Part shown: piece by piece, positions 660 through 20,214 of the stretch | Numbering within the stretch: the stretch's first letter is position 1 | How the letters are laid out: each line of letters starts with the position of its first letter | UHGV virus genome: UHGV-0206901 | Reading direction: 5' to 3' (one strand) | DNA: 26,230 bases | Origin: a virus | Program-made: the position numbers and the translations under genes | Notes under the pieces: generated by a model | What the model was told of the DNA's origin: nothing | The model's input: the letters and a program-made list of their open reading frames with translations, nothing else | Database searches by the model: none

Positions 660-821
660 AAATGCTTGTAACAGTTTTATGCCTTACTTACATGATGATC
701 ATCATCCTGATCCATGCGATCTGGATATCTTCGATCATCAAGCATGACGGGAAATGCCACTACAACGACTGCGGTCACTGTCCGTATGATGCCTGGTGTC
801 CGATGCAGGAGGAGGAAAAAC

Positions 822-3915: not shown

Positions 3916-4229
3916 GAGCCAGACTGAGACCGCCAGGAGATGCCGTTCGCTGCGATGCCTGCGGATGTGCATTTGTTCCGGAAACACTGACGCAGCGTGA
4001 GGGTGAGATCGAATACAGCTTCTTCCGCTGCGACTATTGCGGCAAGGCGTATCTCGTATCCGTTACGGATGCAGACCTCTGCAAGGATATCCGCAGATAC
4101 AGAACGCTTGCGGAAAAGCACAAGATCAAGCCCCTGAGTGAACAGTCGCTCCGCGAGATGGCTGCGCTGAAAGAGCAGAACTTAAAACGAGCCGCAAAGC
4201 TGCGGCAGTTGTACTATGTGGAGGGATGA
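3912..4229 (+). CDS. Zinc-ribbon protein, function unknown
   Basis: 105-aa ORF whose ATG overlaps the nrdG stop; two CxxC pairs (CDACGC, CDYCGK); basic C-terminal tail. Confidence 0.5.
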   Translation: MRARLRPPGDAVRCDACGCAFVPETLTQREGEIEYSFFRCDYCGKAYLVSVTDADLCKDIRRYRTLAEKHKIKPLSEQSLREMAALKEQNLKRAAKLRQLYYVEG

Positions 4230-4230
4230 G

Positions 4231-6310: not shown

Positions 6311-7082
6311 TGTGAAATGTGAGCTGTATCACGATAACTTCCAGAACTTCAAATCCTACTGCATCCCAAAAGCACAGCTCGTCATTGCTGACATTCCGTA
6401 CAACATCGGCGGCGACTTTTATGCCAGCCGTCCCGACTGGTATGTGAACGGTGACAATCAGAACGGTGAAAGCAGCAAAGCGCACAAGGCTGCATTCCAC
6501 ACGGATTACACCTTCAACATCGCTGAATACTTCGCCTTCTGTAACCGGCTGCTCAAAAAGGAGCCGTCCAAAGGTGAGAAGGATGCTCCCTGCATGATTG
6601 TATTCTGTGCCTTTCAGCAGATACCCGAGGTCATCCGGCAGGCGGAGAAATACGGCTTCAAGAAGTATCAGTTTTTGTGCTTTATGAAGAATTACAGTCC
6701 GCAGGTGCTGAAGGCGAACATGAGGATCGTGGGCGCAACGGAGTTTGCTCTGGTGCTGTATCGGGGAAAGCTGCCGAAGTTCCGCAATACCGATGCATAC
6801 GGCAAGAGGCACATGATCTTCGACCATTTTGACTGGATGCGGGACGGCAAGGATATCCCGAAGATACATCCTTCGCAGAAGCCGGTAAATCTCCTGAAAC
6901 GGCTGATCGGGATATTTACCGACGAGGGTGATGTGGTCATCGATCCCTGCGCCGGTTCCGGCTCAACGCTGCGTGCGGCGAGGGAGCTTGGCAGACACAG
7001 CTACGGCTTTGAAGTCAGCCGAGATTTTTACAACAAAGCCTGTGAGCAGATGCTTGGGGAGGTGCAGGATGACAAAGTATGA
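6303..7082 (+). CDS. DNA amino-methyltransferase (N6-adenine or N4-cytosine), divergent motif IV
   Basis: ATG at 6303 is 6 nt after GGAGG; IADIPYN (variant DPPY-type motif IV) near the N-terminus and DPCAGSGST (motif I, AdoMet binding) near the C-terminus. Confidence 0.7.
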   Translation: MADVKCELYHDNFQNFKSYCIPKAQLVIADIPYNIGGDFYASRPDWYVNGDNQNGESSKAHKAAFHTDYTFNIAEYFAFCNRLLKKEPSKGEKDAPCMIVFCAFQQIPEVIRQAEKYGFKKYQFLCFMKNYSPQVLKANMRIVGATEFALVLYRGKLPKFRNTDAYGKRHMIFDHFDWMRDGKDIPKIHPSQKPVNLLKRLIGIFTDEGDVVIDPCAGSGSTLRAARELGRHSYGFEVSRDFYNKACEQMLGEVQDDKV

Positions 7083-7284
7083 GTGCGCCATTGTGACGGC
7101 ATACACAGATATCTCGATGCTGTGCGGCGATGATCTGAAATATCTGTATGACTATCTTTCCGGCTTTATCGGCAGACCGGTGTATACACACGAGATTCCT
7201 GCGGTGGCTGCGGCTTACAGAGACAAGATCAGAGAGGACTTCCTCGATCTGTGCAGGAACGCAAAGGAGGCGGATGATGGATAA
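7069..7284 (+). CDS. Small hypothetical protein
   Basis: 71-aa ORF starting at an internal ATG of ORF 6928-7284, overlapping the upstream methyltransferase stop; no recognisable motif; the 11-nt overlap with the next gene suggests translational coupling. Confidence 0.4.
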   Translation: MTKYECAIVTAYTDISMLCGDDLKYLYDYLSGFIGRPVYTHEIPAVAAAYRDKIREDFLDLCRNAKEADDG

Positions 7285-9487
7285 GAAACACTTGACCCTC
7301 GGCAGCCTGTTTGACGGCTCGGGGGGGTTTCCGCTTGGCGGCATCCTCGCAGGGATCGAGCCGAAGTGGAGCAGCGAAATTGAACCTTTTCCGGTGCTTG
7401 TCACGCACAAGCGACTGCCTGGGGTGAAGCACTACGGCGATGTATCCACACTGAACGGTGCAGAGCTTCCGCCGGTGGATATTATCACCTTCGGCAGCCC
7501 TTGTCAGGATCTGTCCATTGCTGGAAAGCGTGCCGGAATCCATGACGGTGATCGGTCGAACCTGTTCTTTCAGGCGATCCGTATCATCAAAGAAATGAGG
7601 GATGCAACAAATGGACAATACCCGCGATACTGCGTCTGGGAGAATGTCCCCGGCGCTTTCTCCTCCCACGGAGGAGACGATTTCAAAGCTGTCCTCGAAG
7701 CAGTTATCGGAATTAAAGAAGAAGGGATCGAGGTGCCTGCGCCTGAAAATCACAGATGGGCAAAATCAGACGTATATCTGGGAGACGGATGGAGCGTGGC
7801 TTACCGAGTTTTCGATGCTCAATACTGGGGTGTCCCCCAACGCAGAGCAAGAATCTACCTTGTCGCAGATTTTGCTGGCGGAAGTGCCGGAGAAATACTA
7901 TTTAAGTCCGAAGGCGTGTCTGGGTATACTCCGCAGGGCTTCCGTTCGTGGCAAGGAACTGCCGGAGGTGCTGAAGAAAGCACTGGAGCGACAGGCTGGC
8001 GGTCTGACGCTGGAGGTGGAACCCTCTGCGTAAACTGTCAGGGCACGGCAGGTGTCGGTATCACAGAAGATAAGGCACTGGCACTTGTCGCACAGGATCA
8101 CGGGAATCATCCAGCCGTTCTTGCCGCAGGTTTTTCCACAGAGCATAGTGCAAAAGCACGAAGCATCGGCTACGAAGAGGAAGTATCTCCTACACTGAGA
8201 GCTGGTGTTGTTCCGGCGGCAATGGAGCTTCAAAGCTATCCCGTTGAAAATCATCCTGCGGATTCGAGAGTCAGGGTGCGTGAGGACGGAAAGTGTCAGG
8301 GGCTTACAGGCAGAATGGGAACAGGCGGCGGAAACGTACCGCTTGTAGCAGAACCGATTACGCTAAAAATCCGCAGTGGTGGCGGAAATGGTGGTAAGGG
8401 CGCTATCTGGCAAACAGATAAATCCGCAACTCTTGCAACCAATAATGACCAGACGCTTTTTCAGCCGGAGGTCAAGGCTTTCGGTGTATGCAGCAAGCAC
8501 TCCAATGCGATGATGTCCGACAATCCGCACAGCGGATTCTATGAGGCGACCACAAGCAGAACGCTCGACCAAAGTGGTGGAAATTCTGTGACATCGAATC
8601 AGGGCGGCATCTGCGTGGTAGCACCTGCGCCTGAAACCTTCGATGTGCGTTTCACATCAGACGGTACAAAAAACGCTCGTGGGCATTGTTACCCGACAGA
8701 CATTTCCCGATGCCTTGATACGAGCGAGGCGAACCCGGACAGCAATCACGGAGGAGTTGCGGTGGTGGCTCTCGAACCGGGGGCGGCATCCCGTATCGGC
8801 GGTCATGTATACAGTGACGGCAAAAGCGGCACGCTCCGTGCAAATGCCGGAGACAATCAGCAGGCTGTTGTGGTAGCCGAGAAGGAGACCTATGCACTGC
8901 AAGGCTCGATGATCGGTCGCGCCGATCAGAACGGACCGCAGGGTGATGGTATCAATGAAGATGTGTGCTTTACGCTGAACACAACAGACAGGCATGCTGT
9001 CGCAGCACCGGATGCCGATCACTACAGCACAAGCAAGAATTCTCACCACACAGTCGCCGCACATGAACAGGCAAACACGCTGGTCGCATCCGACTGGAAG
9101 GATCCTCCGCTTGTGAACGACCTTCCGAATGACGAGCCGGTATATATCGTTCGTCGTCTGACTCCGGTGGAGTGCGCCAGATTGCAGGGATTCCCCGACT
9201 GGTGGTGTGCCGACCTTGCGATTCCCGATCCGACCGATGAGGAGATCACCTTCTGGATGGAAGTATGGGAAACTTGGAGACAGATCACAAATCCCAAGGG
9301 AAAGCCGAAAACGGAAAAGCAGATCCGCAAATGGTTGGCTGATCCGTACACGGACAGTGCCGAGTACAAGTTATGGGGCAACGGTGTCTCAGAGCCCGTT
9401 GTGTTCTTCGTGCTATCCGGCATTGCCTGGGCGGCACAGAATTCTGAAACTAATGCAGCAAATTGTGAACATTCTGATACTATGTAA
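7274..9487 (+). CDS. DNA cytosine-5 methyltransferase with an exceptionally long variable (target-recognition) region, possibly multispecific
   Basis: ATG at 7274 preceded by AAGGAGG (7264-7270); motif I LFDGSGG, motif IV GSPCQDLS, motif VI ENVPG, motif VIII QRRARIYLV, C-terminal RRLTPVECARLQGFPDWW; about 480 aa lie between motifs VIII and IX. Confidence 0.9.
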   Translation: MMDKKHLTLGSLFDGSGGFPLGGILAGIEPKWSSEIEPFPVLVTHKRLPGVKHYGDVSTLNGAELPPVDIITFGSPCQDLSIAGKRAGIHDGDRSNLFFQAIRIIKEMRDATNGQYPRYCVWENVPGAFSSHGGDDFKAVLEAVIGIKEEGIEVPAPENHRWAKSDVYLGDGWSVAYRVFDAQYWGVPQRRARIYLVADFAGGSAGEILFKSEGVSGYTPQGFRSWQGTAGGAEESTGATGWRSDAGGGTLCVNCQGTAGVGITEDKALALVAQDHGNHPAVLAAGFSTEHSAKARSIGYEEEVSPTLRAGVVPAAMELQSYPVENHPADSRVRVREDGKCQGLTGRMGTGGGNVPLVAEPITLKIRSGGGNGGKGAIWQTDKSATLATNNDQTLFQPEVKAFGVCSKHSNAMMSDNPHSGFYEATTSRTLDQSGGNSVTSNQGGICVVAPAPETFDVRFTSDGTKNARGHCYPTDISRCLDTSEANPDSNHGGVAVVALEPGAASRIGGHVYSDGKSGTLRANAGDNQQAVVVAEKETYALQGSMIGRADQNGPQGDGINEDVCFTLNTTDRHAVAAPDADHYSTSKNSHHTVAAHEQANTLVASDWKDPPLVNDLPNDEPVYIVRRLTPVECARLQGFPDWWCADLAIPDPTDEEITFWMEVWETWRQITNPKGKPKTEKQIRKWLADPYTDSAEYKLWGNGVSEPVVFFVLSGIAWAAQNSETNAANCEHSDTM

Positions 9488-9526
9488 GCTGTTCTGTATG
9501 GGCTTTCCGTGATATGCACAATCTCA

Positions 9527-9542
9527 GGGGCGTAAAAGCCCC
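9527..9542 (+). terminator. GC hairpin downstream of the C5-methyltransferase gene (possible operon terminator)
   Basis: GGGGC gtaaaa GCCCC stem-loop about 40 nt after the stop; the downstream T-tract is weak. Confidence 0.35.
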
Positions 9543-9564
9543 GTACATTCTACGATTTACAGTC

Positions 9565-9593
9565 TTGATATATCCGCCGTAATGGCGTAATAT
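9565..9593 (+). promoter_or_regulatory. Sigma-A-type promoter cassette 1 (TTGATA, 17 bp, TAATAT) with conserved leader
   Basis: -35 TTGATA at 9565-9570, 17-bp spacer, -10 TAATAT at 9588-9593; leader GTGACTACCGTAAGGGAAAACCGAGCGGAATCAAAAACGAAACGGAGGA precedes the ATG at 9650. Confidence 0.6.
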
Positions 9594-9649
9594 GTGACTA
9601 CCGTAAGGGAAAACCGAGCGGAATCAAAAACGAAACGGAGGATTCACAT

Positions 9650-10771
9650 ATGAAAACTTATGCAATGATCATTGGAAACCGCAAGGAACTCACAAAGAGA
9701 ATCGAGGCACTCACCGGAGAGCGCAGCGTATACACCTTCATGCCGAGATGCGCCTATGAGATCGGGGCATTCGCAGTCGAGAAGGACGGCACACTTACGG
9801 CACAGGACGATGCCAACCAGAGCGTGATCGACACCCTGAGAGCCGAGGGTATGATCGGTGATGAGATCATCGCAGAGAGCATCGAGGCAGTCGAGCCGGA
9901 GCAGACCGATGAGACCGCAGAGCCGGAACAGCCTGCACCGCCCGTAAGCACCGATGAATGGGACGATGATGAGGATGACGACGATGAGAACAGCGTCGAG
10001 GGCGAGAATGCGGAAGCGGAAGAGCCGGAGGAGTCCGAAGAAAATGCCGATAAGTCGGAGCCTGCCGCAGAGCCAGAAGCCGCACCTCCTGCGACCGAGG
10101 ATGCCTGGGATGATGAACCGGAGGATGAACCCGGCGACGAGCCGGAAGAAACCACCGAGCTTCCTGAACCGCTGACCGCAGAGATCAGCTTCCCGCTGAG
10201 CCATCACACGGTGCAGAGCCTTACGAACCTCATCTGCATGATCCACTCCCGCGGCGCACTTCTCAGCAAGGCGACCGGCGGAGAATTCTTCGCAGACAAG
10301 AGCCTCGCCGATGCGATCCTCGATGACAAGACCTTCCGCAGCATCCACGAGCTTATCGCCTACATCAGAGTATGGGAGGAAACGAATCCCGAACTGAAGG
10401 GCATCCGTTTCGCCGATGACAAGCTGATCTTTGACGGCTTCGGTGCAGCACAGGATGCCGAGACGGTGCAGACCTTCACCAAGCTCGCCGCAGCCATGAA
10501 CAGGATGGCGATCACGCAGAAACGTGTGCAAGCAAAGGATGTCGATGACAGCAACGAAAAGTACGCACTCCGCATCTGGCTGATCCGCCTTGGGCTGAAC
10601 GGTGCTGACTTCAAGGCTGACCGCAAGCGCCTCATGACTCCGCTTTCCGGACACACCGCATTCCGCAACGATGAGGAGCGTGAACGCTGGGAGGCAAAGC
10701 AAAAGGCAAAGCGTGATGCTGCCAGAACCGAACTGACCGAGGAGGATGAAAACGATGCAGTTTCCGAATGA
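9650..10771 (+). CDS. Amidoligase-like paralog, probably catalytically degenerate, with a ~95-aa acidic low-complexity insertion
   Basis: 373 aa; the C-terminal half aligns by eye with the downstream amidoligase-like ORF (TVQSLTNL vs TPQTLRNL; KYALRIWLIRLGLNGADF vs KFAMRTWLMRMGFIGDEF); the GVEIE and HCH motifs of the paralog are absent; residues ~80-172 are D/E/P-rich. Confidence 0.55.
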   Translation: MKTYAMIIGNRKELTKRIEALTGERSVYTFMPRCAYEIGAFAVEKDGTLTAQDDANQSVIDTLRAEGMIGDEIIAESIEAVEPEQTDETAEPEQPAPPVSTDEWDDDEDDDDENSVEGENAEAEEPEESEENADKSEPAAEPEAAPPATEDAWDDEPEDEPGDEPEETTELPEPLTAEISFPLSHHTVQSLTNLICMIHSRGALLSKATGGEFFADKSLADAILDDKTFRSIHELIAYIRVWEETNPELKGIRFADDKLIFDGFGAAQDAETVQTFTKLAAAMNRMAITQKRVQAKDVDDSNEKYALRIWLIRLGLNGADFKADRKRLMTPLSGHTAFRNDEERERWEAKQKAKRDAARTELTEEDENDAVSE

Positions 10772-11003
10772 ACGACAGCTCAAAGCCTTGCGGGAGCGTT
10801 ATCCCGAAGGCACCCTTATCCGACTGAAGCACATGGACGATCCCTACGCACCAGTGCCGCCCGGAACAATTGGCGAGGTTCAGATGGTCGATGACGGCGG
10901 CAACATACACATGGTCTGGCAGAACGGCAGAACGCTTTCTCTTATAGAAGGCGTGGATGATTTCCAGGTCATTTCTGACCGCAATGGGGGCCCCGGAAAA
11001 TAA
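10755..11003 (+). CDS. Small hypothetical protein
   Basis: ATG at 10755 is 8 nt after GGAGGA and overlaps the upstream gene end; 82 aa, glycine-rich beta-like sequence (GTIGEVQMVDDGGNIHMVWQNG). Confidence 0.5.
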   Translation: MQFPNERQLKALRERYPEGTLIRLKHMDDPYAPVPPGTIGEVQMVDDGGNIHMVWQNGRTLSLIEGVDDFQVISDRNGGPGK

Positions 11004-11116
11004 GAGATCCTATTCCATTGTATCCGAGTATACCATAGAATTTCAAGTATATCAAGTGTACACATACACCAGATATGAGCAATGTATTTTCCTCGATATT
11101 CTGTGGTTTTAGCGGC

Positions 11117-11145
11117 TTGCTATATCCTCCGAAAGACGGTAACAT
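11117..11145 (+). promoter_or_regulatory. Sigma-A-type promoter cassette 2 (TTGCTA, 17 bp, TAACAT) with conserved leader
   Basis: -35 at 11117-11122, -10 at 11140-11145; leader GTGACACAACGGAAGGGCAAATGCCCACCGAAAAACCGAATCGGAGGA; ATG at 11201. Confidence 0.6.
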
Positions 11146-11200
11146 GTGACACAACGGAAGGGCAAATGCCCACCGAAAAACCGAATCGGAGGATACCAAA

Positions 11201-12145
11201 ATGACTGAGAAAACCGCACAGCAGATCAACAGAATGAAGGAGCAGACCATCGGGGTTGAGATCGAGATGAACAACATCACCCGCAAGGCTGCCGCAAAGC
11301 TCGCCGCTGACTTCTTCGGCACGAACCGCTACGAGGACACGGCCTGCCGCAACGGCTACTACACTTGGAGCGCATGGGATGCACAGGGGCGCGAGTGGAA
11401 ATTCCAGCGGGACGTGAGCATCGCAGGCTCCGACAGCGAAAAGTGCGAACTGGTCACACCGATCCTGCACTACGCAGACATCGAAACCCTGCAGGAGCTT
11501 GTGAGAAAGCTCAGGAAGGCAGGAGCGCGCAGTGATTACACGCGGGGATGTGGAGTCCACTGCCATATTGGAGCCCAGGGACACACACCGCAGACCTTGA
11601 GAAACCTCGCAAACCTGATGGCAAGCCACGAAACCCTGATCGCCGAGGCAATCAGAGTAGACCAGAGCAGAATGCGCCGCTACTGCAGAACAGTTGACCC
11701 GAGATTCCTTGAACAGCTCAACCGCAAAAAGCCCACCACGATGGCACAGCTTGCGGACATCTGGTACGGCGCACAGGGCTGCGAATACGGCAGAACCCAC
11801 CACTACAACGACAGCCGCTATCACATGCTCAACCTCCACGCTACCTTCACCAAAGGCACGGTCGAGTTCAGACTTTTCCAGTTCGCACCGCCCTCAAACG
11901 GCAAGCAGAACGGGCTCCACGCAGGCAAGCTCAAGAGCTACATTCAGCTCTGCCTCGCAATGAGCCAGATGGCAAAGGACCTGCGGAGCGCCAGCCCCAA
12001 GGAGCAGCAGAAGGAAAACAAAAAGTTCGCCATGCGGACTTGGCTGATGAGAATGGGATTCATCGGGGATGAATTCGCAACGGCGAGAGAGGTCCTCACT
12101 GAGAACCTTACGGGCGACAACAGCTTCCGCTTCGGCAGATCTTAA
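11201..12145 (+). CDS. Putative amidoligase (glutamine-synthetase-like / gamma-glutamyl-cysteine-ligase-like ATP-dependent amide ligase family)
   Basis: 314 aa; N-terminal IGVEIEMNN strand with paired glutamates and a central GCGVHCHIG motif, both typical of Amidoligase_2-type enzymes as I recall them; own promoter cassette; followed by an AIG2-like gene. Confidence 0.65.
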   Translation: MTEKTAQQINRMKEQTIGVEIEMNNITRKAAAKLAADFFGTNRYEDTACRNGYYTWSAWDAQGREWKFQRDVSIAGSDSEKCELVTPILHYADIETLQELVRKLRKAGARSDYTRGCGVHCHIGAQGHTPQTLRNLANLMASHETLIAEAIRVDQSRMRRYCRTVDPRFLEQLNRKKPTTMAQLADIWYGAQGCEYGRTHHYNDSRYHMLNLHATFTKGTVEFRLFQFAPPSNGKQNGLHAGKLKSYIQLCLAMSQMAKDLRSASPKEQQKENKKFAMRTWLMRMGFIGDEFATAREVLTENLTGDNSFRFGRS

Positions 12146-12410
12146 AGGCCTGCCCTTCGGGGCGGAAGAACAAGCGGAACGGCACGGCGGCGCACACAGC
12201 CGCCACGGTCTCGGCTCTCGCCTCGGTCGGTGCTTCTGCTTCGCAGAGGTTGCCACTGGCAACCCGCACCCCCGTGTGGGGCGGAAAGGGTATCCTCCGA
12301 ATCGGTATCCCATCTCAGTCAACCGCGCCACACAGCGCAAATGTAGGCAAGGCATAAAATGCACAACATACGGCACAGAATCGCCCTCGATGATCTGTTC
12401 ATTTACTCGC

Positions 12411-12439
12411 TTGATAATGCCGCCGAAATGAGTTAACAT
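12411..12439 (+). promoter_or_regulatory. Sigma-A-type promoter cassette 3 (TTGATA, 17 bp, TAACAT)
   Basis: -35 at 12411-12416, -10 at 12434-12439; leader AGCACTACCGCAAGGAAAAAACGCAAAGGAG; ATG at 12479. Confidence 0.55.
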
Positions 12440-12478
12440 AGCACTACCGCAAGGAAAAAACGCAAAGGAGAACATAGC

Positions 12479-12940
12479 ATGAACAAGAAAAAATACTACA
12501 TAGCCTACGGCAGCAACCTCAACATCCGCCAGATGCGATTCCGCTGCCCAGGCGCAAAGCCTATCGGCATCACGGTGATTCCCGACTACGAACTGCTCTA
12601 CAAGGGCAGCAAGACCGGCGCGTACCTGACCATAGAACCGAAGAAGAACGGCATCGTTCCGATTGCGGTATGGGAGGTCACCGCAGCAGACGAGAAGCGG
12701 CTGGATGCCTACGAGGGCTGCCCGACCTTCTACTACAAGAAGAACGTCTGCCTGCCGGTGAAGCTGGCAAGCGGCAAGACCAAGCGCCTGACAGCATTCG
12801 TCTACATCATGCACGAGGAGCGCAGCCTCGGAATTCCGTCGCTTGCCTACATCCGCACCTGCGAGGAAGGCTATCGCAACTTCGGATTTGATTTGAAGTA
12901 CCTTGACAGGGCATACATGAGAAGCACAAAGGAGGACTGA
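12479..12940 (+). CDS. AIG2 / gamma-glutamyl cyclotransferase (GGCT)-like protein
   Basis: 153 aa; N-terminal YIAYGSNLN matches the Y-x-A-Y-G-S-N-L/M hallmark of the GGCT/AIG2 fold; a candidate catalytic Glu lies in LDAYEGCP. Confidence 0.7.
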   Translation: MNKKKYYIAYGSNLNIRQMRFRCPGAKPIGITVIPDYELLYKGSKTGAYLTIEPKKNGIVPIAVWEVTAADEKRLDAYEGCPTFYYKKNVCLPVKLASGKTKRLTAFVYIMHEERSLGIPSLAYIRTCEEGYRNFGFDLKYLDRAYMRSTKED

Positions 12941-12942
12941 AA

Positions 12943-13146
12943 ATGAAAGAACAAGTTTTTGAAAAGCGTACATGTCCGAAATGCGGACGCACCTACACCG
13001 AGCGCCCTGCCCTATCCCGCTACGACAACGACACGATCATCTGCCCGGACTGCGGCACGAGGGAGGCGCTTGAAAGCATCGGCGTCGGACGCGAGGAACA
13101 GGACAAGATTCTCGGCATTATCCACGAGAAGTACAACGGCGAATAA
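12943..13146 (+). CDS. Small zinc-ribbon protein
   Basis: 67 aa; GGAGG RBS; CPKCG...CPDCG cysteine pairs; the ATG is 2 nt after the upstream stop. Confidence 0.55.
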   Translation: MKEQVFEKRTCPKCGRTYTERPALSRYDNDTIICPDCGTREALESIGVGREEQDKILGIIHEKYNGE

Positions 13147-13154
13147 GGCGGCAC

Positions 13155-13178
13155 AAAGGGGCGTTACAGCCCCTTTCC
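13155..13178 (+). terminator. Putative intrinsic terminator
   Basis: AAAGGGGC gttaca GCCCCTTT hairpin followed by TCC; 8 nt after the stop of the zinc-ribbon gene. Confidence 0.5.
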
Positions 13179-13317
13179 GCATTCTCAGGGATAACTTATC
13201 CCCCACTTTCCGGGCGTGACACGGCGCGTTCTGGCGCAAACTGTGGGCTTGTGTATATGTACCTGTTCAGCTTGCTGAAAACGGCGATTCTTCTACGATT
13301 TATTTTGCACATAGGCG

Positions 13318-13346
13318 TGGACATATCGCCGGGATCATGGTAATAT
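13318..13346 (+). promoter_or_regulatory. Sigma-A-type promoter cassette 4 (TGGACA, 17 bp, TAATAT) with upstream A/T-rich element
   Basis: TTTATTTTGCACATAGGCG upstream; -35 at 13318-13323; TG-extended -10 at 13341-13346; leader CACAACGGCAGGGGCAGACAGCCCACC. Confidence 0.6.
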
Positions 13347-13404
13347 GCTACACAACGGCAGGGGCAGACAGCCCACCGGAATTCATAACATGGAGGATAC
13401 GAAT

Positions 13405-13875
13405 ATGAACGACAGCTACTTTGAGGAGATGACCTTCCAGTGCGCCGCCTATGAACGCGCCAAAAAGGAGCGCGCCGAGCGCAAGGCTCAGATTGCCGAA
13501 GCCCACGGCTACGACAGCCCGGAGATGGACGCTTGGTACGCTGAGGAGAAGGCGGCGGGTCCTTACCCCTACAGCGGCGGTGAGATGAAAGCCTACTGGG
13601 TGTACAAGATGCGCCGCGAGAACGACGGTGACGAGTTCGAGATGAGCGATTACTGCTGGGACAAGGAATTCCACGATTTCATCGAAACGCTCCGCAAGCT
13701 AGGCATCACCGAGTTCACGATCACCAATCAGAGCACGGCGCTGATGGAGAACATCTACGGATTTATTGCAGAAGGCTGCACGATGGTCGGAACGCACACC
13801 ATCACCAAGAAGAGCCTGCGCTGGGGCGAGGAAGAATACGAAACGGCACAGGGCATCCTTTTCAAGGTGAACTGA
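13405..13875 (+). CDS. Hypothetical protein
   Basis: ATG at 13405 is 8 nt after GGAGGA, the same position as in the other cassettes; 156 aa; no recognisable motif. Confidence 0.55.
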   Translation: MNDSYFEEMTFQCAAYERAKKERAERKAQIAEAHGYDSPEMDAWYAEEKAAGPYPYSGGEMKAYWVYKMRRENDGDEFEMSDYCWDKEFHDFIETLRKLGITEFTITNQSTALMENIYGFIAEGCTMVGTHTITKKSLRWGEEEYETAQGILFKVN

Positions 13876-13883
13876 TATCGACA

Positions 13884-13920
13884 GGAGCAGGGCTTCGGCT
13901 CTGCTCCCCCTCCCCCTTTT
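13884..13920 (+). terminator. UUCG-tetraloop hairpin, putative terminator
   Basis: GGAGCAGGGC ttcg GCTCTGCTCC (10 bp with one G-U pair) followed by CCCCTCCCCCTTTT; the same hairpin recurs at 15715-15738. Confidence 0.45.
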
Positions 13921-13993
13921 CCTCATGTGTAAATCCTACAATACGAAAGGCTGAGATCGGCGATTCTTCTACGTTTTATTTTGCACATAGGCG

Positions 13994-14022
13994 TGGACTT
14001 ATCAGCAGGATCATGGTAATAT
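13994..14022 (+). promoter_or_regulatory. Sigma-A-type promoter cassette 5 (TGGACT, 17 bp, TAATAT)
   Basis: Near-identical to cassette 4, including the upstream TTTATTTTGCACATAGGCG; leader GTGACACAACGGAAGGGCAGAACGCCTACCGAAAAACGAAACGGAGGA. Confidence 0.6.
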
Positions 14023-14077
14023 GTGACACAACGGAAGGGCAGAACGCCTACCGAAAAACGAAACGGAGGATAACACC

Positions 14078-14398
14078 ATGAACCCCTACACACTGAGAAA
14101 GAGCCTGAACCTGATTGATGCCAACACGGCGATCATCCGCGAGGACTTCGAGAGCCTCTTCTGCAAGACTGCAGAGCGTGTCACCTTTACCTTCAACGGT
14201 TGGGACGGCAAGAGCTATGATGGCGAGAGGCGCAGCGGTTACGTTTACCGCACCATCATCGAGGGCTACGAGAATGTGAGATTCTTTAAGGTCGGCAAGG
14301 GACTGCATTACATCGATGAGGACAGCAGCATTACCGAGAAGGCTACGGGCATCGCCCACAAGGAAGCAGAGTGGCTGGTCGATGTGAAGAGAGCATAA
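14078..14398 (+). CDS. Hypothetical protein
   Basis: 106 aa; GGAGGA 7 nt upstream of the ATG. Confidence 0.55.
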   Translation: MNPYTLRKSLNLIDANTAIIREDFESLFCKTAERVTFTFNGWDGKSYDGERRSGYVYRTIIEGYENVRFFKVGKGLHYIDEDSSITEKATGIAHKEAEWLVDVKRA

Positions 14399-14463
14399 GC
14401 AAAACAGCGGAGCCCTTCCTGCGGGGAGGGCTTACCGCAGAAAAAACATGGAGGTTTACGAAC

Positions 14464-14847
14464 ATGAGTACGAATTCAAGAGTCGGAATCCTGCATCAGG
14501 ACGGCGCCACGGAGACAATCTACTGCCATTGGGACGGCTACCCCGAACACCAGATGCCCATCCTCACCGAGCATTATAACACCGCCGAGAAGGTCAAGGC
14601 ACTGCTTGCCCTTGGAGACATCAGCATCCTCGGCGAGCGCCTTGCTCCCGATGCGGATGAGCCGCACAGCTTTGAAAAGCCTGCCGATGGTGTGACGGTT
14701 GCTTACCACCGCGACCGCAAAGAGCCGATGCAGCCTGCGGTCACCCACAAGAGCGTTGTTTCCCTGATGAGCGATGACTGGGGCATTCCGTATTACTACC
14801 TTTTCGATGAGGAAAAAGGAGCATGGCTTCCGCCGACCGAGGACTGA
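14464..14847 (+). CDS. Hypothetical protein
   Basis: Internal ATG at 14464 is 9 nt after GGAGG; 127 aa; probably co-transcribed with the preceding gene (no promoter cassette in between, only a hairpin). Confidence 0.5.
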   Translation: MSTNSRVGILHQDGATETIYCHWDGYPEHQMPILTEHYNTAEKVKALLALGDISILGERLAPDADEPHSFEKPADGVTVAYHRDRKEPMQPAVTHKSVVSLMSDDWGIPYYYLFDEEKGAWLPPTED

Positions 14848-15276
14848 TAGGTTCAGCCCTGCGGGGCTGACTTGCCCCACGTTGTCCTTTGTGAGGTTTT
14901 CCTGCGATAAGCTTGCCCCTGCGGAAAGCCGCCTCACACGGCGCGTTTGTGTGCTGACCGCAGTCATCGCAAACCTGTCGGCCACGGGAACATGGACGGA
15001 GCGAGAAGTGATGGAAACGCTGCTGGATGTCTTTGAACCGAAGGAGCTTGAACAGCTCGGCTACGGCGACTGCGTGAACGCATACTTGGAAGAGTACGGC
15101 GGATGGCGACGACACACGCACCACGTTGCCTCGTGTGGGGCGGTGCCGGGGAGATGCGTACAGCTTGCCCCTGCGAAAAGCCGCCTTACACGGCGCGTTC
15201 TGGCGCGTCCTATACGATGTACAATTCCGCCCGACTTCCCGCCTCATGTTTGTCACATTTATTTTGCAGACAGACG

Positions 15277-15305
15277 TGGACTTTTCTGCGAAAAGACGGT
15301 AATAT
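15277..15305 (+). promoter_or_regulatory. Sigma-A-type promoter cassette 6 (TGGACT, 17 bp, TAATAT)
   Basis: Upstream TTTATTTTGCAGACAGACG; leader GTGACTACCGCAAGAGAAGCGGAATCAATCAAAAGGAG; ATG at 15353. Confidence 0.6.
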
Positions 15306-15352
15306 GTGACTACCGCAAGAGAAGCGGAATCAATCAAAAGGAGCGAATCTAC

Positions 15353-15706
15353 ATGAAAATTCTGGTATGCGAACCCGGCAAGCACCCCTACGTCAAGGAC
15401 ATCGAGTCGGGGCTGGAGAACCTTCAGCACGAGGTGGACGGACTGATTCAGGCCCTCTACCCATTTTCCGAAGAGGCGGCTGTTGTGTGCAACGAAGAAG
15501 GGCTGTTCCGCGATGACCTCGAATGGAACAGAACGGTCGATCCCTATGGTCCGATCAAGGGAACATTCTTCATTTGTGGGCTCGGCTTTGAAGATTTTAC
15601 AGGACTGACCGATGAACAGATCGAAAAGTACACTAAGCTCTTCTGGCCTCCTGAGCTTTTCATCCCGACACCGAACGGCATGGTGGTGCTTCACATTGTG
15701 GAATGA
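15353..15706 (+). CDS. Hypothetical protein
   Basis: 117 aa, starting at the ATG placed like the other cassette-driven genes; the longer ORF-track frame (14774-15706) reads through repeat and promoter sequence and is probably not all coding. Confidence 0.55.
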   Translation: MKILVCEPGKHPYVKDIESGLENLQHEVDGLIQALYPFSEEAAVVCNEEGLFRDDLEWNRTVDPYGPIKGTFFICGLGFEDFTGLTDEQIEKYTKLFWPPELFIPTPNGMVVLHIVE

Positions 15707-15809
15707 CCGCAACAGGGGCAGGGCTTCGGCTCTGCTCCGCACCATTCCCCGGTCATAATGTACACAACTGAACGCCGAAAAATTCAGAAATGATCGTGAT
15801 TACTCACGC

Positions 15810-15838
15810 TTGATAATGTAGGCAAGAAGAGTTATACT
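15810..15838 (+). promoter_or_regulatory. Sigma-A-type promoter cassette 7 (TTGATA, 17 bp, TATACT)
   Basis: Leader GTGTACAACGGAAGGGCGGAAAGCCCAGCCGAAAACGAAAATGCGGAGG; ATG at 15896. Confidence 0.6.
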
Positions 15839-15895
15839 GTGTACAACGGAAGGGCGGAAAGCCCAGCCGAAAACGAAAATGCGGAGGTACACACC

Positions 15896-16075
15896 ATGAA
15901 AACGAAGCAGGAACTGATCGAGAAGGCAAAGAAAGAGTGGGGCGAGACTTGGAACGAGGGCATGATCGAGTACGATGCCGAGTACAACGAGTACATCGTC
16001 TGGGTAGGCAAGCCGGACATCTACAAAGCCTTCTTCGATGCCGACACCCTCAGATGCATTGGCACGAAGTGCTGA
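15896..16075 (+). CDS. Small hypothetical protein
   Basis: 59 aa; GGAGG 7 nt upstream; lysine/glutamate-rich. Confidence 0.45.
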   Translation: MKTKQELIEKAKKEWGETWNEGMIEYDAEYNEYIVWVGKPDIYKAFFDADTLRCIGTKC

Positions 16076-16130
16076 GAACAACCGCCGCCCTTCGGGGCGG
16101 CACAACACCAATACTAAGGAGGACATTTAC

Positions 16131-16403
16131 ATGAGCGAGAACACAGAAAAGCGCGATGCAGCCGAAGAACTAGAACTTACCGATGCACAGGCAGACCGCA
16201 ACGATGACATCTACGAGGCAGCTTTTGAATTCTGCAAGGTGCTGACCGAGAACCCCGACCTCGAATGGGACATGGCGTTCCTCGGTGAGATCGCCGACCT
16301 TGCCGCTGGCATCATGACCGAGCAGGGACACAAGGTGCGGTTCCCCAGTGTGGTCACCGAGCAGGACGGCACGCAGTACATTGAAGAATACTACGGCGGC
16401 TGA
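16131..16403 (+). CDS. Small acidic hypothetical protein
   Basis: 90 aa; AAGGAGG 7 nt upstream; preceded by the GCCGCCC ttcg GGGCGGC hairpin (16083-16100); ends ...YIEEYYGG. Confidence 0.5.
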   Translation: MSENTEKRDAAEELELTDAQADRNDDIYEAAFEFCKVLTENPDLEWDMAFLGEIADLAAGIMTEQGHKVRFPSVVTEQDGTQYIEEYYGG

Positions 16404-16604
16404 TCGGCAAAACGGAGCAGTCCTTCTGCGGAGGGGCTGTTCCACGCCACGTTCGCTTGTGTGGGGGGCTTACGGCTTTCTGCGGATATCTTGCCCCGCG
16501 ATAAAAGCCGCCCACACGGCGCATTTGTGTGCCTCCTGCGGCAAGGCATAATATGTACAACAACCGACAAAAAATCGCCTTGCACATTCTGGTAGTTTAG
16601 CCGC

Positions 16605-16633
16605 TTGATATATCTGCCGAAAAGAGTTATAGT
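16605..16633 (+). promoter_or_regulatory. Sigma-A-type promoter cassette 8 (TTGATA, 17 bp, TATAGT)
   Basis: Leader GTGTACAACGGAACGGGAAACCGAGCCGAAAACTACGAAAGAACGAGG; ATG at 16690. Confidence 0.55.
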
Positions 16634-16689
16634 GTGTACAACGGAACGGGAAACCGAGCCGAAAACTACGAAAGAACGAGGTAAACACT

Positions 16690-16926
16690 ATGTGGCACGA
16701 AGGCACGATTCTGGCACCGACCAAGGAAGGCAAGACGGTGGTTCACTACTGGGCAAAGGTCTACGACGAGGGCAGCCAGTACGGCATCAACGAGGGCAGA
16801 ATCAGTAAACTAACACTCAAGGAGAATGGCAAGGTCATCTACAACTACGACAGAGGCGAGGATGTACCCGAGCAGAACGAGGCTGCGAAGATTGCCCTTG
16901 CGATCCTGATGTACGAGTACAAGTAA
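16690..16926 (+). CDS. Small hypothetical protein
   Basis: 78 aa ORF downstream of cassette 8. Confidence 0.5.
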   Translation: MWHEGTILAPTKEGKTVVHYWAKVYDEGSQYGINEGRISKLTLKENGKVIYNYDRGEDVPEQNEAAKIALAILMYEYK

Positions 16927-17014
16927 ATAGAACGGTCGGTGGGCGGTAGCATTAAGCCGCCCATCCAAACCAAGACGGACACACATATAAATTCAAGGTG
17001 GATATACATAGGAG

Positions 17015-17044
17015 AGGCTTGCAGCACGCAGGCCTTTTCTTTAT
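17015..17044 (+). terminator. Intrinsic terminator between the accessory island and the packaging genes
   Basis: AGGCTTGC agcac GCAGGCCT (8 bp, one G-U) followed by TTTTCTTTAT; ends about 30 nt before the terS start. Confidence 0.6.
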
Positions 17045-17074
17045 GCAGATTTTTTGAGAAAAGGAGTGATGCGG

Positions 17075-17548
17075 ATGGCTCAGAGAGGCAGAAAACCGAC
17101 GCCGACAGCAATCAAGGAACTGGAAGGCAATCCGGGCAAGCGTCCGCTGAATGATGCAGAGCCGAAGCCGGAACGCAAGGCACCGCCCTGTCCGAAATGG
17201 CTGGAGCCCGAAGCAAAAAAGGAATGGCGCAGGCTGTCAAAGCAACTGGAGCAGATTGGTGTGCTGACCGAGGTCGATCAGGCGGCATTCGCATCCTACT
17301 GTCAGGCATACGCACGATGGAAAGAAGCCGAGGAATTCATGACACAGCACGGCACGATCGTGAAAACAAAATCAGGTTACTGGCAGCAGGTGCCGCAGGT
17401 ATCCATTGCACAGACCTATCTGAAGATCATGAATAAGATCGCAGAACAGTTCGGTCTGACTCCTGCCGCAAGAAGCAGGATCACCGCAGGTGCGGATATG
17501 AAGGACGCTGCCGTTGACGATATGGATGAACTTCTCGGAGGTGACTGA
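17075..17548 (+). CDS. terS: Terminase small subunit
   Basis: AAGGAG 8 nt upstream of the ATG at 17075; 157 aa; basic N-terminus (RGRKPTPTAIKELEGNPGKRP) and overall pattern typical of P27-family small terminases; sits directly upstream of, and overlaps, the large terminase. Confidence 0.8.
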   Translation: MAQRGRKPTPTAIKELEGNPGKRPLNDAEPKPERKAPPCPKWLEPEAKKEWRRLSKQLEQIGVLTEVDQAAFASYCQAYARWKEAEEFMTQHGTIVKTKSGYWQQVPQVSIAQTYLKIMNKIAEQFGLTPAARSRITAGADMKDAAVDDMDELLGGD

Positions 17549-20214
17549 TGGCGAGAACGGCAAAGGCAAGAGAAAGACCTGCCAACTATCCGAAACTGAA
17601 GGATTATAAACCGACACGCTTTATGCTGCCGGAATCGCACTACGATGCGGCAAAGGCTGACCGAGCTGTGCGGTTCATCGAGAATCTCTGCCATACCAAA
17701 GGACGCTGGGCAGGAAAGCCGTTCTGGTTGCTGCCGTGGCAGGAACAGATCATCCGGGATATTTTCGGCATCGTCAAAGAGGATGATACCCGCCAATTCC
17801 GCACAGCTTATGTCGAAATTCCAAAGAAAAATGGGAAGCAGCTTGCACTGGATACACCGATCCCGACTCCGCAGGGATTCACCAATATGGGAGATCTGAA
17901 GGTCGGAGATACAGTATTCGATGAAAACGGCATTCCGTGCCATGTGGTTGCGAAAAGTCCTGTGGATGATACAGAGCAAGCCTACAAGCTGACCTTCAAG
18001 GACGGCAGCTCGATCATCGCCGGAGAACGGCATCTGTGGAACTGTCAGTATATTTACGGCAAACGCAAGGATGTTCTCTGGACGACCGGCGAGATCTATC
18101 GCAGGACTTCAGAATACAGACGGCGATTCTCAGACCGACCGCAGTCAAAGCGGGATTCTCTGATCCGAATTCCGGTGTGCGGTGTCCTTCAGACAGAAGC
18201 GGCAGTTTTACCGATTGATCCGTATCTGTACGGCTACTGGCTCGGAAACGGTAATGTGACCATGCCGGAGATCACTGTTCGGACGGAGGATGTCGAGGAT
18301 ATCATCTCGAATATTCCGTATAAGGTACACAACCGTTATCCGCAGAAATGCGGCGGCAGTGAGATCATAAAGTACAATGAACTGAAAGCAGTACTACTTG
18401 ACAGCTTCCGTGAAAAGAAGATCCGACCAGAATATCTGAGGGCATCCGCAGAGCAGAGATGGGCATTACTGCAAGGGCTTATGGATTCGGACGGCTGTAT
18501 CGGTGAACGCAAAGGGCAAAGTGTGTATGTCACAACGCTGCGAGAGCTGGCGCTTTCCGTCAGAGAACTGCTGTGGTCGCTCGGTATCAAAAATGCAGTG
18601 AAATGTGAGCCTTCTACTCGGCATGGGTGGCCGACTGGAGAGATTTTGTATATCGTCCGGTTTACTACCTTTGACGATCAGCCGACATCAAGACTGAAAC
18701 GAAAGTACACACGCACACGGGCGCGGGTGAAAGAAACTCGCTCCTGTTTTCATTATTTACTGGACATTCAGCCTGTGGATCATCCTGTGAAAATGCAGTG
18801 TATTCAGGTGGATAGTCCTAGCCACCAATATCTTGCTGGAACATCGTTTGTGCCTACGCACAACAGTGAGCTTGCAGCCGCAATTGCGCTGTATCTGCTC
18901 TACGCTGACAACGAGCCATCCGCCGAGGTCTACGGTGCTGCCGCCGACCGACAGCAGGCATCCATTGTATTCGATGTCGCCAAAAGAATGGTTGAGATGA
19001 CACTGGCACTTCTGAAACGCTCAAAAATCATGGCGGCGACAAAGCGTCTGGTGAATTACAGCAATGTCGGTTTCTATCAGGTGCTTTCGGCGGAGGTCGG
19101 AACAAAACACGGTCTGAATGTATCTGGGCTTGTGCTTGACGAGCTTCATGTTCAGCCGAACCGTAATCTTGTGGACGTTCTCACAAAGGGATCCGGTGAT
19201 GCCCGTACTCAGCCGCTGTACTTCCTGATCACCACAGCCGGCACTGACCGAAACAGCATCTGCTATGAATACCACACCAAGGCAAAAGACATCCTCGAAG
19301 GGCGGCGTATCGATCCGTCATTCTATCCTGTCATTTACGGTCTGGATGACGGCGACGACTGGAATTCAGAGGAATCGTGGTACAAGGCAAATCCGTCTCT
19401 CGAATACACAATTACCATAGACCGTGTGCGGGATGCCCATCGTGAAGCACTGACAAATCCTGCGGAAGAAAATGTATTCCGTCAGCTTCGTCTTGATCAG
19501 TGGGTTGGCAGTGCGGTTGCATGGGTGCCGGAGCATATCTACGACAAAGGCAATATACCAATCAATCCGGAGTCTCTGTACGGACGCGAGTGCTATGCAG
19601 GACTGGACCTTTCCAGTACATCTGATATCACGGCATTTGTTCTGGTATTCCCACCGTTGTATGAGGGTGATAAATACATCGTTGTACCCCACTTCTGGCT
19701 GCCGAGGGAAACACTTGACCTGCGTGTACGGCGAGACCATGTTCCCTACGATGTATGGGAGCGCATGGGGCTATTTCATATCACCGAGGGCAATGTGGTG
19801 GACTACAACTTCGTGCGGAAAACGATCAATGAGCTGCACACGATGTATAACATCAAGGAAATTGCAGCAGACCGCTGGAATGCCACACAGCTTATCACCG
19901 ACCTGCAGGGTGACGGTTTTACCGTTGTCCCGATGGGCATGGGCTTCAAGGATATGTCGCCACCGATGAAGGAGCTTTACAAGCTGCTGCTTGAGGGCAA
20001 GTTTATCCATGGCGGAAATCCTGTCCTGCGATGGATGGCAGGAAATGTGGTCGCTGAAATTGACGCGGCGGAAAATATCAAGCCGTCCAAGAAAAAGTCT
20101 ACAGAGAAAATTGACGGCATCGTAGCATGGATCATGGCACTTGACCGCTGCATCCGCCACGAAATGCAGGGCAGTGTCTATGACGAACCCGGCCACGATC
20201 TTGTGGTCATCTGA
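17548..20214 (+). CDS. terL: Terminase large subunit, interrupted by an in-frame intein at the Walker A (P-loop) site
   Basis: 888-aa ORF; N-extein ends ...EIPKKNGK and C-extein begins SELAAAIALYLLYADNEPSAEVYGAAADRQQ, which together rebuild a canonical PKKNGKS P-loop; C-terminal nuclease-domain-like region; followed by the portal gene. Confidence 0.92.
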   Translation: MARTAKARERPANYPKLKDYKPTRFMLPESHYDAAKADRAVRFIENLCHTKGRWAGKPFWLLPWQEQIIRDIFGIVKEDDTRQFRTAYVEIPKKNGKQLALDTPIPTPQGFTNMGDLKVGDTVFDENGIPCHVVAKSPVDDTEQAYKLTFKDGSSIIAGERHLWNCQYIYGKRKDVLWTTGEIYRRTSEYRRRFSDRPQSKRDSLIRIPVCGVLQTEAAVLPIDPYLYGYWLGNGNVTMPEITVRTEDVEDIISNIPYKVHNRYPQKCGGSEIIKYNELKAVLLDSFREKKIRPEYLRASAEQRWALLQGLMDSDGCIGERKGQSVYVTTLRELALSVRELLWSLGIKNAVKCEPSTRHGWPTGEILYIVRFTTFDDQPTSRLKRKYTRTRARVKETRSCFHYLLDIQPVDHPVKMQCIQVDSPSHQYLAGTSFVPTHNSELAAAIALYLLYADNEPSAEVYGAAADRQQASIVFDVAKRMVEMTLALLKRSKIMAATKRLVNYSNVGFYQVLSAEVGTKHGLNVSGLVLDELHVQPNRNLVDVLTKGSGDARTQPLYFLITTAGTDRNSICYEYHTKAKDILEGRRIDPSFYPVIYGLDDGDDWNSEESWYKANPSLEYTITIDRVRDAHREALTNPAEENVFRQLRLDQWVGSAVAWVPEHIYDKGNIPINPESLYGRECYAGLDLSSTSDITAFVLVFPPLYEGDKYIVVPHFWLPRETLDLRVRRDHVPYDVWERMGLFHITEGNVVDYNFVRKTINELHTMYNIKEIAADRWNATQLITDLQGDGFTVVPMGMGFKDMSPPMKELYKLLLEGKFIHGGNPVLRWMAGNVVAEIDAAENIKPSKKKSTEKIDGIVAWIMALDRCIRHEMQGSVYDEPGHDLVVI
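17839..18864 (+). mobile_element. Intein (~342 aa) with an embedded double-motif LAGLIDADG homing endonuclease, inside terL
   Basis: Block A-like LALDTPIPT...GDLKVGDTVF; block B GERHLW; two LAGLIDADG motifs (LYGYWLGNGNV and LLQGLMDSDGCI); terminal ...FVPTHN followed by Ser +1. Confidence 0.8.

Follow-up and report, generated by a model that had tools for sequence, protein, structure and literature searches.

Sense-strand UNCG stem-loops behind the small accessory genes of an uncultured gut phage and their possible role as leaky transcript ends

The virus genome UHGV-0206901 was analysed as one stretch of 26,230 nucleotides (nt), hereafter the window, in which every gene lies on the + strand. 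The window is a segment of a tailed phage or prophage: genes for TerL, the portal and the capsid are present, and NrdD/NrdG and three methylases lie upstream of them. An accessory island of small open reading frames (ORFs) occupies 9.5–17 kb, with the DNA-methylase genes before it and the terminase genes behind it; the function of these ORFs is mostly not assigned, and the gene content of the island varies among relatives. This study concerns the hairpins that follow the genes of the island. Seven of them carry a UNCG tetraloop closed by a C-G pair, and we found that they are far from random, favour the sense strand, lie just past stop codons and lack a U-tract. With moderate confidence, we propose that they make leaky transcript ends, as terminators or attenuators, and hinder 3′-exonucleases, within moron-like units of an island that is shuffled in the manner of the PeSL (promoter-early stem-loop) cassettes of other phages. 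An original prediction, made by a model from the letters of the window, had pointed to four hairpins with TTCG loops, had read them as possible RNA stabilisers, processing sites or attenuators rather than simple terminators, and had called for terminator prediction, folding energies and a check of the loops in relatives, all of which are given below.

The closest annotated relatives are Ca. Heliusvirales phages from human faeces, with ~70% DNA identity across conserved genes, and near-identical contigs were found in IMG/VR. Bacterial genomes containing the 22-nt core of one of the hairpins (15715–15738) were only Oscillospiraceae, Ruminococcus and Clostridiales metagenome-assembled genomes (MAGs), where it stood in phage-type contexts; from these Oscillospiraceae-type MAG matches, the siphovirus-like phage appears to have a host among gut or rumen Clostridia. 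The genes of the window are as follows.

1304–3915, +, anaerobic ribonucleotide reductase NrdD and its activase
4216–9487, +, three DNA methyltransferases and a PAPS-reductase-like gene
7148–9487, +, C5-methylase gene
9650–16926, +, run of small genes
11201–12145, +, amidoligase gene
12479–12940, +, GGACT/AIG2-like cyclotransferase gene
12943–13146, +, Zn-ribbon gene
13405–13875, +, DUF7698 gene
15353–15706, +, DUF3846 gene
14078–14398, 14464–14847, 15896–16075, 16131–16403 and 16690–16926, +, other small genes
17054 onward, +, terminase, portal and major capsid genes (the label terS is taken from the annotation of relatives)

The C(UNCG)G stem-loops of the island

The seven hairpins share a UNCG loop, a C-G closing pair and a stem of Watson-Crick and G·U pairs. 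The apex is CTTCGG or CTGCGG, the stems measure 6–13 bp, and there are nine G·U pairs altogether.

12150–12165, +, C(UUCG)G, 6 bp including one G·U; 4 nt past the amidoligase stop codon
13884–13907, +, C(UUCG)G, 10 bp, one G·U, −18.7 kcal/mol; 8 nt past the DUF7698 stop codon
14410–14433, +, C(UGCG)G, 10 bp, two G·U, −18.3 kcal/mol; outer helix at 14407–14437
14853–14870, +, C(UGCG)G, 7 bp, −13.3 kcal/mol; 5 nt past the stop codon of gene 14464–14847
15715–15738, +, C(UUCG)G, 10 bp, two G·U, −17.8 kcal/mol; 8 nt past the DUF3846 stop codon
16084–16101, +, C(UUCG)G, 7 bp; between genes 15896–16075 and 16131–16403
16414–16443, +, C(UGCG)G, 13 bp, three G·U, −22.6 kcal/mol; 10 nt past the stop codon of gene 16131–16403

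The four hairpins of the original prediction are thus all in the sequence, three of them at the coordinates given; the fourth, placed at 16083–16100, was one base off. In the first, the core GCCC ttcg GGGC at 12152–12163 is extended by one G·U pair to 12150–12165. The hairpin at 13884–13907 had been described as repeated at 15715–15738, but the second copy is not exact: it has GGGGCAG for GGAGCAG, and the G in place of A turns an A-U pair into a second G·U. The three C(UGCG)G hairpins had been missed. The hairpin at 14410–14433 separates genes 14078–14398 and 14464–14847, which we read as co-transcribed.

Chance does not account for these structures. For stems of 6 bp or longer, 1000 shuffles of the window that preserved its dinucleotides gave an expectation of 0.04 TTCG hairpins against the four observed and of 0.17 TNCG hairpins against the seven observed, and none of the shuffles reached either count. 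Folded as + strand RNA, the seven have energies of −11 to −25 kcal/mol, with z-scores of −3.3 to −4.3 for six of them; the short hairpin at 12150 is weak on its own (z −1.5), yet relatives conserve it. When the whole window was scanned for stable stem-loops, the strongest ones all fell within 12150–17054, each 4–11 nt past a + strand stop codon. That the hairpins arose by chance, or simply through the composition of GC-rich intergenic DNA, is a notion for which the weak z-score at 12150 might speak; it is refuted by the shuffles, by the sense/antisense bias of the loops, by the fixed position past stop codons and by the conservation described below, and we regard it as practically negligible.

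The structures most probably belong to the sense-strand RNA. Because the stems contain G·U pairs, + strand RNA is far more stable than − strand RNA: −24.1 vs −9.6 kcal/mol at 16414, −19.2 vs −10.5 kcal/mol at 15715, and −24.8 (z −4.3) vs −18.7 kcal/mol at 14410. This asymmetry in stability and the strand asymmetry in the type of loop, given below, both fit an RNA transcribed in the direction of the genes, which supports the original assignment to the RNA level. A UNCG loop with a C-G closing pair confers extra stability in RNA and not in DNA. The preference for it would make sense only for RNA, a point that draws on established tetraloop knowledge (see PMC4371310). We regard the hairpins as real, predicted sense-strand stem-loops that close small gene cassettes. 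A scan of the whole window with the Rfam covariance models, at E up to 1, gave no match.

None of the seven has a U-tract next to its stem; the tails are C- or A-rich, and at 13884–13907 a TTTT begins only 11 nt past 13907. According to the original prediction, a T-tract follows only some of them; this has to be corrected to none. Against the usual description of a canonical intrinsic terminator, the GC-rich hairpin is present and the U-tract directly after the stem is not. A consensus terminator scan flagged none of the seven on the + strand, and flagged only the − strand reading of 16084–16101, where no gene exists. Post-gene hairpins with other loops also occur in the island, and of the three at 13155–13176, 16938–16965 and 17010–17040 only the last has a T-rich tail.

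9527–9542, +, hairpin GGGGC GUAAAA GCCCC; after the C5-methylase gene and followed by the island's first promoter module
13155–13176, +, non-UNCG hairpin AAAGGGGC GUUACA GCCCCUUU; 8 nt past the Zn-ribbon stop codon
16938–16965, +, hairpin with an 8-nt loop; after gene 16690–16926
17010–17054, +, terminator-like 13-bp stem (17010–17040) followed by the T-rich UUUAUGCAGAUUUUU; just before terS

The hairpin at 13155–13176 (−16.5 kcal/mol, z −4.4) folds equally well on both strands. The site at 17010–17054 is the sole terminator-like site in the island and contrasts with the seven hairpins by its T-rich tail. No 3′ hairpin was found in the AT-rich stretch 11004–11100 after gene 10746–11003; two promoter-like − strand sites (11055–11027 and 11046–11017) lie there, with no evident − strand gene. 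Just past the amidoligase hairpin, the 62 nt at 12208–12269 contain many small hairpins and are missing from several relatives; homology to three related contigs (L004, L013 and L015) stops at 12207 and restarts at 12270.

To examine conservation, loci around orthologues of three island genes were collected, and also all exact copies of the 22-nt hairpin core. Distinct tetraloop hairpins were counted in 683 kb of gene-oriented related loci. UNCG loops made up 52 of the 240 sense-strand hairpins (22%; TTCG 19, TGCG 17, TCCG 8 and TACG 8) and 6 of the 246 antisense ones (2%), the random share being ~1.6%. At least four T within 8 nt after the stem were found in only 4 of these 52. Counted by distinct context, 102 of 110 UNCG hairpins lay no more than 40 nt past an ORF stop, most commonly at 8 nt. 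To judge from the excess on the sense strand and from the exchange of loops described next, selection in the relatives acts on the UNCG loop as such.

The orthologous sites illustrate how the hairpins change. Every DUF3846 orthologue with at least 79% amino acid identity is followed by a strong hairpin, which belongs either to a GGGGCAGGGC-UNCG-GYYCUGCYCC family, with UUCG or UGCG as the loop and stem pairs shifting among G-C, G·U and A-U, or is an unrelated GGCUGCCC-UUCACC-GGGCAGCC. Behind the amidoligase gene, the close clade has CUGCCC-UUCG/UGCG-GGGCGG, and a clade of 75–77% identity has another stem, GACCGC...GCGGUC, with UUCG, UCCG, UACG, UUUG or CUUG as the loop. DUF7698 orthologues (74–96% identity) have still different hairpins, with the next gene directly behind. 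The loops UUCG, UGCG, UCCG and UACG are exchanged among orthologous hairpins. Since distant orthologues have a different hairpin at the same place, a hairpin is kept there even where its sequence is not; the hairpin thus persists in its position while the sequence turns over, and UNCG loops have arisen repeatedly. In the annotated Heliusvirales, the strongest intergenic hairpins are likewise UNCG-looped (UCCG, UUCG and UACG; L001 6078–6101, L001 6611–6634 and L003 10510–10539), two of them with T-tracts.

One hairpin recurs as a sequence, either by transfer or by convergence. The 22-nt core of the hairpin at 15715, GGCAGGGCTTCGGCTCTGCTCC, recurs behind several unrelated gene 3′ ends, and the exact 24-mer GGGGCAGGGCTTCGGCTCTGCTCC (15715–15738, both G·U positions included) is the only DNA common to otherwise unrelated phage contigs of 43–46% GC (L024, L027, L028 and L050). 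In L050 it is followed by TTTTTT and resembles a canonical terminator.

Promoter modules, a 195-nt cassette and a 100-nt repeat

Eight homologous modules, each comprising a predicted promoter and a 5′ untranslated region (UTR), could be aligned between 9.5 and 16.7 kb, before the starts at 9650, 11201, 12479, 13405, 14078, 15353, 15896 and 16690.

9565–9649, +, module 1: TTGATA, 17 nt, TAATAT, then UTR and Shine-Dalgarno sequence (SD)
11117–11200, +, module 2: TTGCTA, 17 nt, TAACAT
12411–12478, +, module 3: TTGATA, 17 nt, TAACAT
13318–13404, +, module 4: TGGACA, 17 nt, TGgTAATAT
13994–14077, +, module 5: TGGACT, 17 nt, TGgTAATAT
15277–15352, +, module 6: TGGACT, 17 nt, TAATAT
15810–15895, +, module 7: TTGATA, 17 nt, TATACT
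16605–16689, +, module 8: TTGATA, 17 nt, TATAGT

In the common layout, 17 nt separate a −35 box (TTGATA or TGGACW) from a −10 box (TAATAT, TAACAT or TATAST), the latter sometimes with an extended TG. The −10 box is followed by a conserved start region, GTGAC(A)CAACGG or GTGACTACCG, and by a UTR of ~50 nt that contains a small GC stem-loop; GGAGG and ATG come last. The UTR stem-loop lies close to the predicted 5′ end (e.g., CGG-aa-GGGC-aaat-GCCC-a-CCG) and was seen at 9597–9649, 11146–11200, 13352–13404, 14028–14077, 15843–15895 and 16640–16689; its inner stem differs by copy (GGGC/GCCC vs CGG/CCG), and it may be a 5′ stabiliser. A promoter module follows five of the seven UNCG hairpins of the window. 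Each gene or gene pair thus looks like a transcription unit of its own, with a putative stem-loop at both ends of its transcript.

A regulatory cassette of ~195 nt is repeated, with some of the hairpins as its 5′ edge; behind the hairpin come the sigma-70-type promoter, the 5′ UTR and the SD. The cassette at 13880–14077, which has the hairpin at 13884–13907 as its 5′ edge, is ~85% identical to positions 6957–7154 of two related contigs (L015 and L016). The homology extends from the first base of the hairpin to the ATG, and the genes differ on both sides.

A further repeat of ~100 nt, GC-rich, is present in three copies, with partial copies near 12254–12345 and 13177–13237.

14870–14960, +, copy 1: between a 3′ hairpin and the next promoter
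15108–15207, +, copy 2: left arm of the junction in L004
16444–16538, +, copy 3: right arm of the junction in L004

Its conserved blocks are CCACGTTCGC, GTGTGGGG, GCGGATAACTTGCCCC and CCCCACACGGCGCG. The repeat is located between a 3′ hairpin and the promoter that comes next. In the fetched loci, 93 distinct copies were found, and in the gene-oriented loci they always share the orientation of the genes. A structured RNA was suspected, but no convincing consensus fold emerged: RNAalifold on 41 copies yielded only a 4-bp helix with zero covariation, and a candidate long-range helix, GTGTGGGG/CCCCACAC, was 84% paired with an invariant core; the repeat is probably conserved as sequence. The near-identical IMG/VR contig L004 (6700–6860) lacks ~1.3 kb of the window (15198–16522) with three genes, namely DUF3846, 15896–16075 and 16131–16403. 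The crossover lies inside the ACACGGCGC block shared by two copies of the repeat.

Between two copies of the repeat, in the long intergenic region 14848–15352, positions 15011–15103 hold an apparent remnant of a small gene (METLLDVFEPKELEQLGYGDCVNAYLEEYGG...), without an SD. A mechanically called ORF of 310 aa (14774–15706) is an open-frame artefact that spans the same intergenic region.

The protein encoded at 9650–10771 (373 aa) has a long acidic stretch and no Pfam match, and it shares with the C-terminus of the amidoligase a C-terminal module of ~70 aa (RIWLIRLGLNGADF vs RTWLMRMGFIGDEF; BLASTP E 8e-11). TerL (17548–20214) has 888 aa and carries, right after the Walker A lysine, an insertion of ~350 aa with a LAGLIDADG domain; the insertion ends with THN followed by S, as in an intein, and starts with QLALDT, not with Cys, Ser or Ala.

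Leaky transcript ends and the alternatives

Two of the window hairpins lie ~30 nt before the next gene with no intervening promoter: that at 14410, before the start at 14464, and that at 16084, before the start at 16131. In the relatives, according to a crude calling of ORFs and SDs, the next SD and start codon lie within 60 nt of the hairpin in 49 of 102 cases and at 121–350 nt in 42 of 102. Because about half of the hairpins have the ribosome-binding site of the next gene so close, they would not be efficient terminators, as full termination there would silence the downstream genes. The original view that they are not simple intrinsic terminators is supported by these distances and by the missing U-tracts.

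We propose that a UNCG-capped stem-loop would form on the sense strand at the 3′ end of each small accessory gene, and that the island may be a row of moron-like mini transcription units, each running from a sigma-70-type promoter through a short 5′ UTR, which has a small stem-loop of its own, and an SD to one or two genes and a closing 3′ hairpin. Given the lack of U-tracts and the location of about half of the relatives' hairpins inside operons, the most likely role of the hairpins would be that of leaky terminators or attenuators that also block 3′-to-5′ exonucleases, and they would set the 3′ ends and the stability of the cassette mRNA without bringing transcription to a full stop. Selection may have favoured the UNCG loop because a short GC stem would then fold fast and stay folded. 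The 195-nt cassette and the 100-nt repeat would supply the homology for exchange, gain and loss of gene cassettes between related phages.

Some candidate functions named or implied by the original prediction were rejected. Attenuation in the translational sense is unlikely, since all seven hairpins leave the SD of the next gene uncovered, and processing by RNase III is disfavoured by stems of 6–13 bp, which are too short. What the original prediction held about RNA structures other than simple terminators was upheld in part; the role of some hairpins as cassette edges and the long-known CUUCGG hairpins of phages had been overlooked.

Several points weigh against our proposal. We infer from sequence the promoters, the 3′ ends and the effects on stability, as well as the terminator, attenuator and stabiliser activities. 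The distances to the next gene in the relatives depend on the crude calling mentioned above. The sole junction mapped at base level, that of L004, is in the 100-nt repeat and not in a hairpin. Covariation in the 13884/15715 hairpin was counted formally on 11 copies, orthologous or paralogous; 99.1% of cells were paired, but only two double-sided changes were found, which is not above shuffle controls. Double-sided changes are few because most changes are transitions through G·U; covariation alone is thus no proof of structure, and the case rests on the strand bias, the loop selection and the replacement of hairpins. Finally, some PeSL stem-loops terminate strongly in E. coli reporters, where one cut expression as much as rrnB T1 (PMC2839356), and strong termination by hairpins without a U-tract is therefore possible.

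This last point gives appreciable weight to the alternative that the hairpins are efficient factor-independent terminators that do without a U-tract and fully insulate each cassette, in the way proposed for the 'I-shaped' terminators of high-GC bacteria, or with the aid of NusA/NusG. Their location directly past stop codons, the promoter modules that follow most of them, the canonical look of the 24-nt hairpin before TTTTTT in L050 and the UNCG loops on T-tract hairpins of the distant Heliusvirales would all suit this explanation. It has to face the lack of a U-tract in all seven, the silencing of genes that begin, with no promoter between, 15–60 nt behind two hairpins of the window and roughly every second one in relatives, and the terminator-like hairpin with a T-rich tail that the phage has at the end of the island (17010–17054). 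We regard it as unlikely, albeit the strongest competitor of the leaky ends proposed here.

A much smaller chance is left for the hairpins as binding sites or operators of an RNA-binding protein, encoded by the phage or by the host, that would serve in antitermination, translational repression or RNA processing. The exact recurrence of one 24-nt hairpin across contexts is more than structure alone needs and would be explained by such a protein. The stems of the seven, however, differ freely and orthologous sites hold unrelated hairpins; the next SD is not overlapped, the stems are too short for RNase III, Rfam gave no match, and a commentary (PMC4371310) states that the CUUCGG tetraloop is bound by no proteins.

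Still less probable, in our view, are structures at the DNA level, that is, cruciforms or single-strand hairpins that act as recombination or cassette-insertion sites like the attC sites of integrons, or as replication signals. Such sites would be expected at cassette boundaries; the hairpins indeed lie there, only a few bases from points where homology with relatives begins or ends, and the same hairpin does occur behind unrelated genes. The G·U positions, however, become A·C mismatches on the other strand, so that the stems form well on one strand only, and the sense/antisense bias is 52 vs 6. The selected feature, a UNCG loop with a C-G closing pair, has its special stability in RNA, as is well established. 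The scan of ORFs in 714–16403 revealed no gene for an integrase or recombinase, and the mapped junction is ordinary homology in the 100-nt repeat. An attC-like site was rejected on the lack of an integrase among these ORFs and on the one-strand pairing; attC sites are long imperfect inverted repeats with extrahelical bases and a nearby tyrosine integrase, whereas the hairpins here are short and perfect apart from G·U.

Known systems and meaning for the phage lineage

The hairpins are an ordinary, known kind of phage feature. Stable stem-loops at cistron 3′ ends or in intercistronic positions are familiar as stabilisers from repetitive extragenic palindromic elements, from the intercistronic hairpins of Rhodobacter puf and from Bacillus 3′ stem-loops that block polynucleotide phosphorylase. 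Like these, the present hairpins lack U-tracts and are compatible with read-through; they have no sequence relationship to any of these stabilisers, and their protective effect is a conjecture. TTCG loops are reportedly over-represented in E. coli terminators, a finding ascribed to d'Aubenton Carafa in 1990. The GC-rich stem, the stable tetraloop and the position just past the stop codon recall such canonical intrinsic terminators, from which the hairpins differ by the U-tract missing in all seven and by the operon position of about half of the relatives' hairpins.

Lambdoid morons, a term linked to Juhala and Hendrix, are genes inserted between phage genes with a promoter and a terminator of their own. 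The units of the island resemble them in having one or two accessory genes with a predicted promoter upstream and a hairpin downstream, placed between core modules. Classical morons, in contrast, have canonical U-tract terminators and are usually solitary, while here eight units with homologous regulatory DNA and no U-tracts are arranged in tandem.

The nearest precedent for the structures themselves is phage T4. As far as the statements in PMC8948821 (citing Tuerk 1988) and PMC4371310 go, CUUCGG hairpins were discovered in T4 mRNA, occur commonly in many phages, chiefly between genes, and have a stabilising effect on some T4 transcripts. The present hairpins agree with them in the C(UUCG)G apex on short GC stems with G·U allowed, in the mostly intergenic position and in the sense strand of phage mRNA; a tie to transcript stability, not always to termination, is shared as well, although here it is predicted only. 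They differ in belonging to a Clostridia siphovirus-like phage, in having UGCG as frequently as UUCG and in being confined to one accessory island.

The nearest precedent for the arrangement is that of the PeSL cassettes, which mediate shuffling in T4-type phages (PMC2839356 and PMC4122927). In both cases, an intergenic cassette with a G·U-containing stem-loop and a strong (here predicted) sigma-70-type promoter ends at the SD and start codon and is repeated in different gene contexts, mostly within a plastic region whose small genes have no assigned function. In both, indels or replacements between relatives are bounded by the repeats, as with the cassette shared with L015/L016 and the three-gene indel of L004. 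The stem-loop of PeSL lies within or adjoining the promoter, whereas here it is ~100 nt upstream of the −35 box (13884–13907 vs 13994); UNCG loops, the extra GC-rich 100-nt repeat that carries the mapped junction and a different phage order are further differences.

What is new is modest: the equal frequency of UGCG and UUCG, the systematic absence of U-tracts in this clade and the evidence of PeSL-like shuffling in Clostridia phages. The terms terminator, hairpin, stem-loop, promoter and intergenic are not mentioned in the paper on Heliusvirales (PMC11283538). We advance only tentatively, although we think it quite possible, the broader idea that the hairpin-promoter-UTR cassettes and the 100-nt repeat are PeSL-like mobile regulatory DNA, by which accessory genes would be gained, lost and exchanged across a large lineage of gut and rumen Clostridia phages, with the hairpins as tunable leaky ends; such DNA is apparently undescribed there.

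Current concepts are left unchanged by these results. They provide a regulatory map of the accessory island of an abundant uncultured gut-phage lineage, with eight candidate promoters and ten candidate transcript ends, and transcript boundaries of this kind will escape annotation pipelines that require a U-tract. For gut Firmicutes, the cassettes could be used as compact expression parts. UNCG loops, whose preference was first seen in T4, are preferred in Clostridia phages as well, and repeated regulatory DNA is indicated as a substrate for the shuffling of accessory genes, some of them perhaps with anti-defence roles. If the cassettes are indeed mobile in this way, the exact 24-nt hairpin found in unrelated phages would be a trace of modules moving between lineages.

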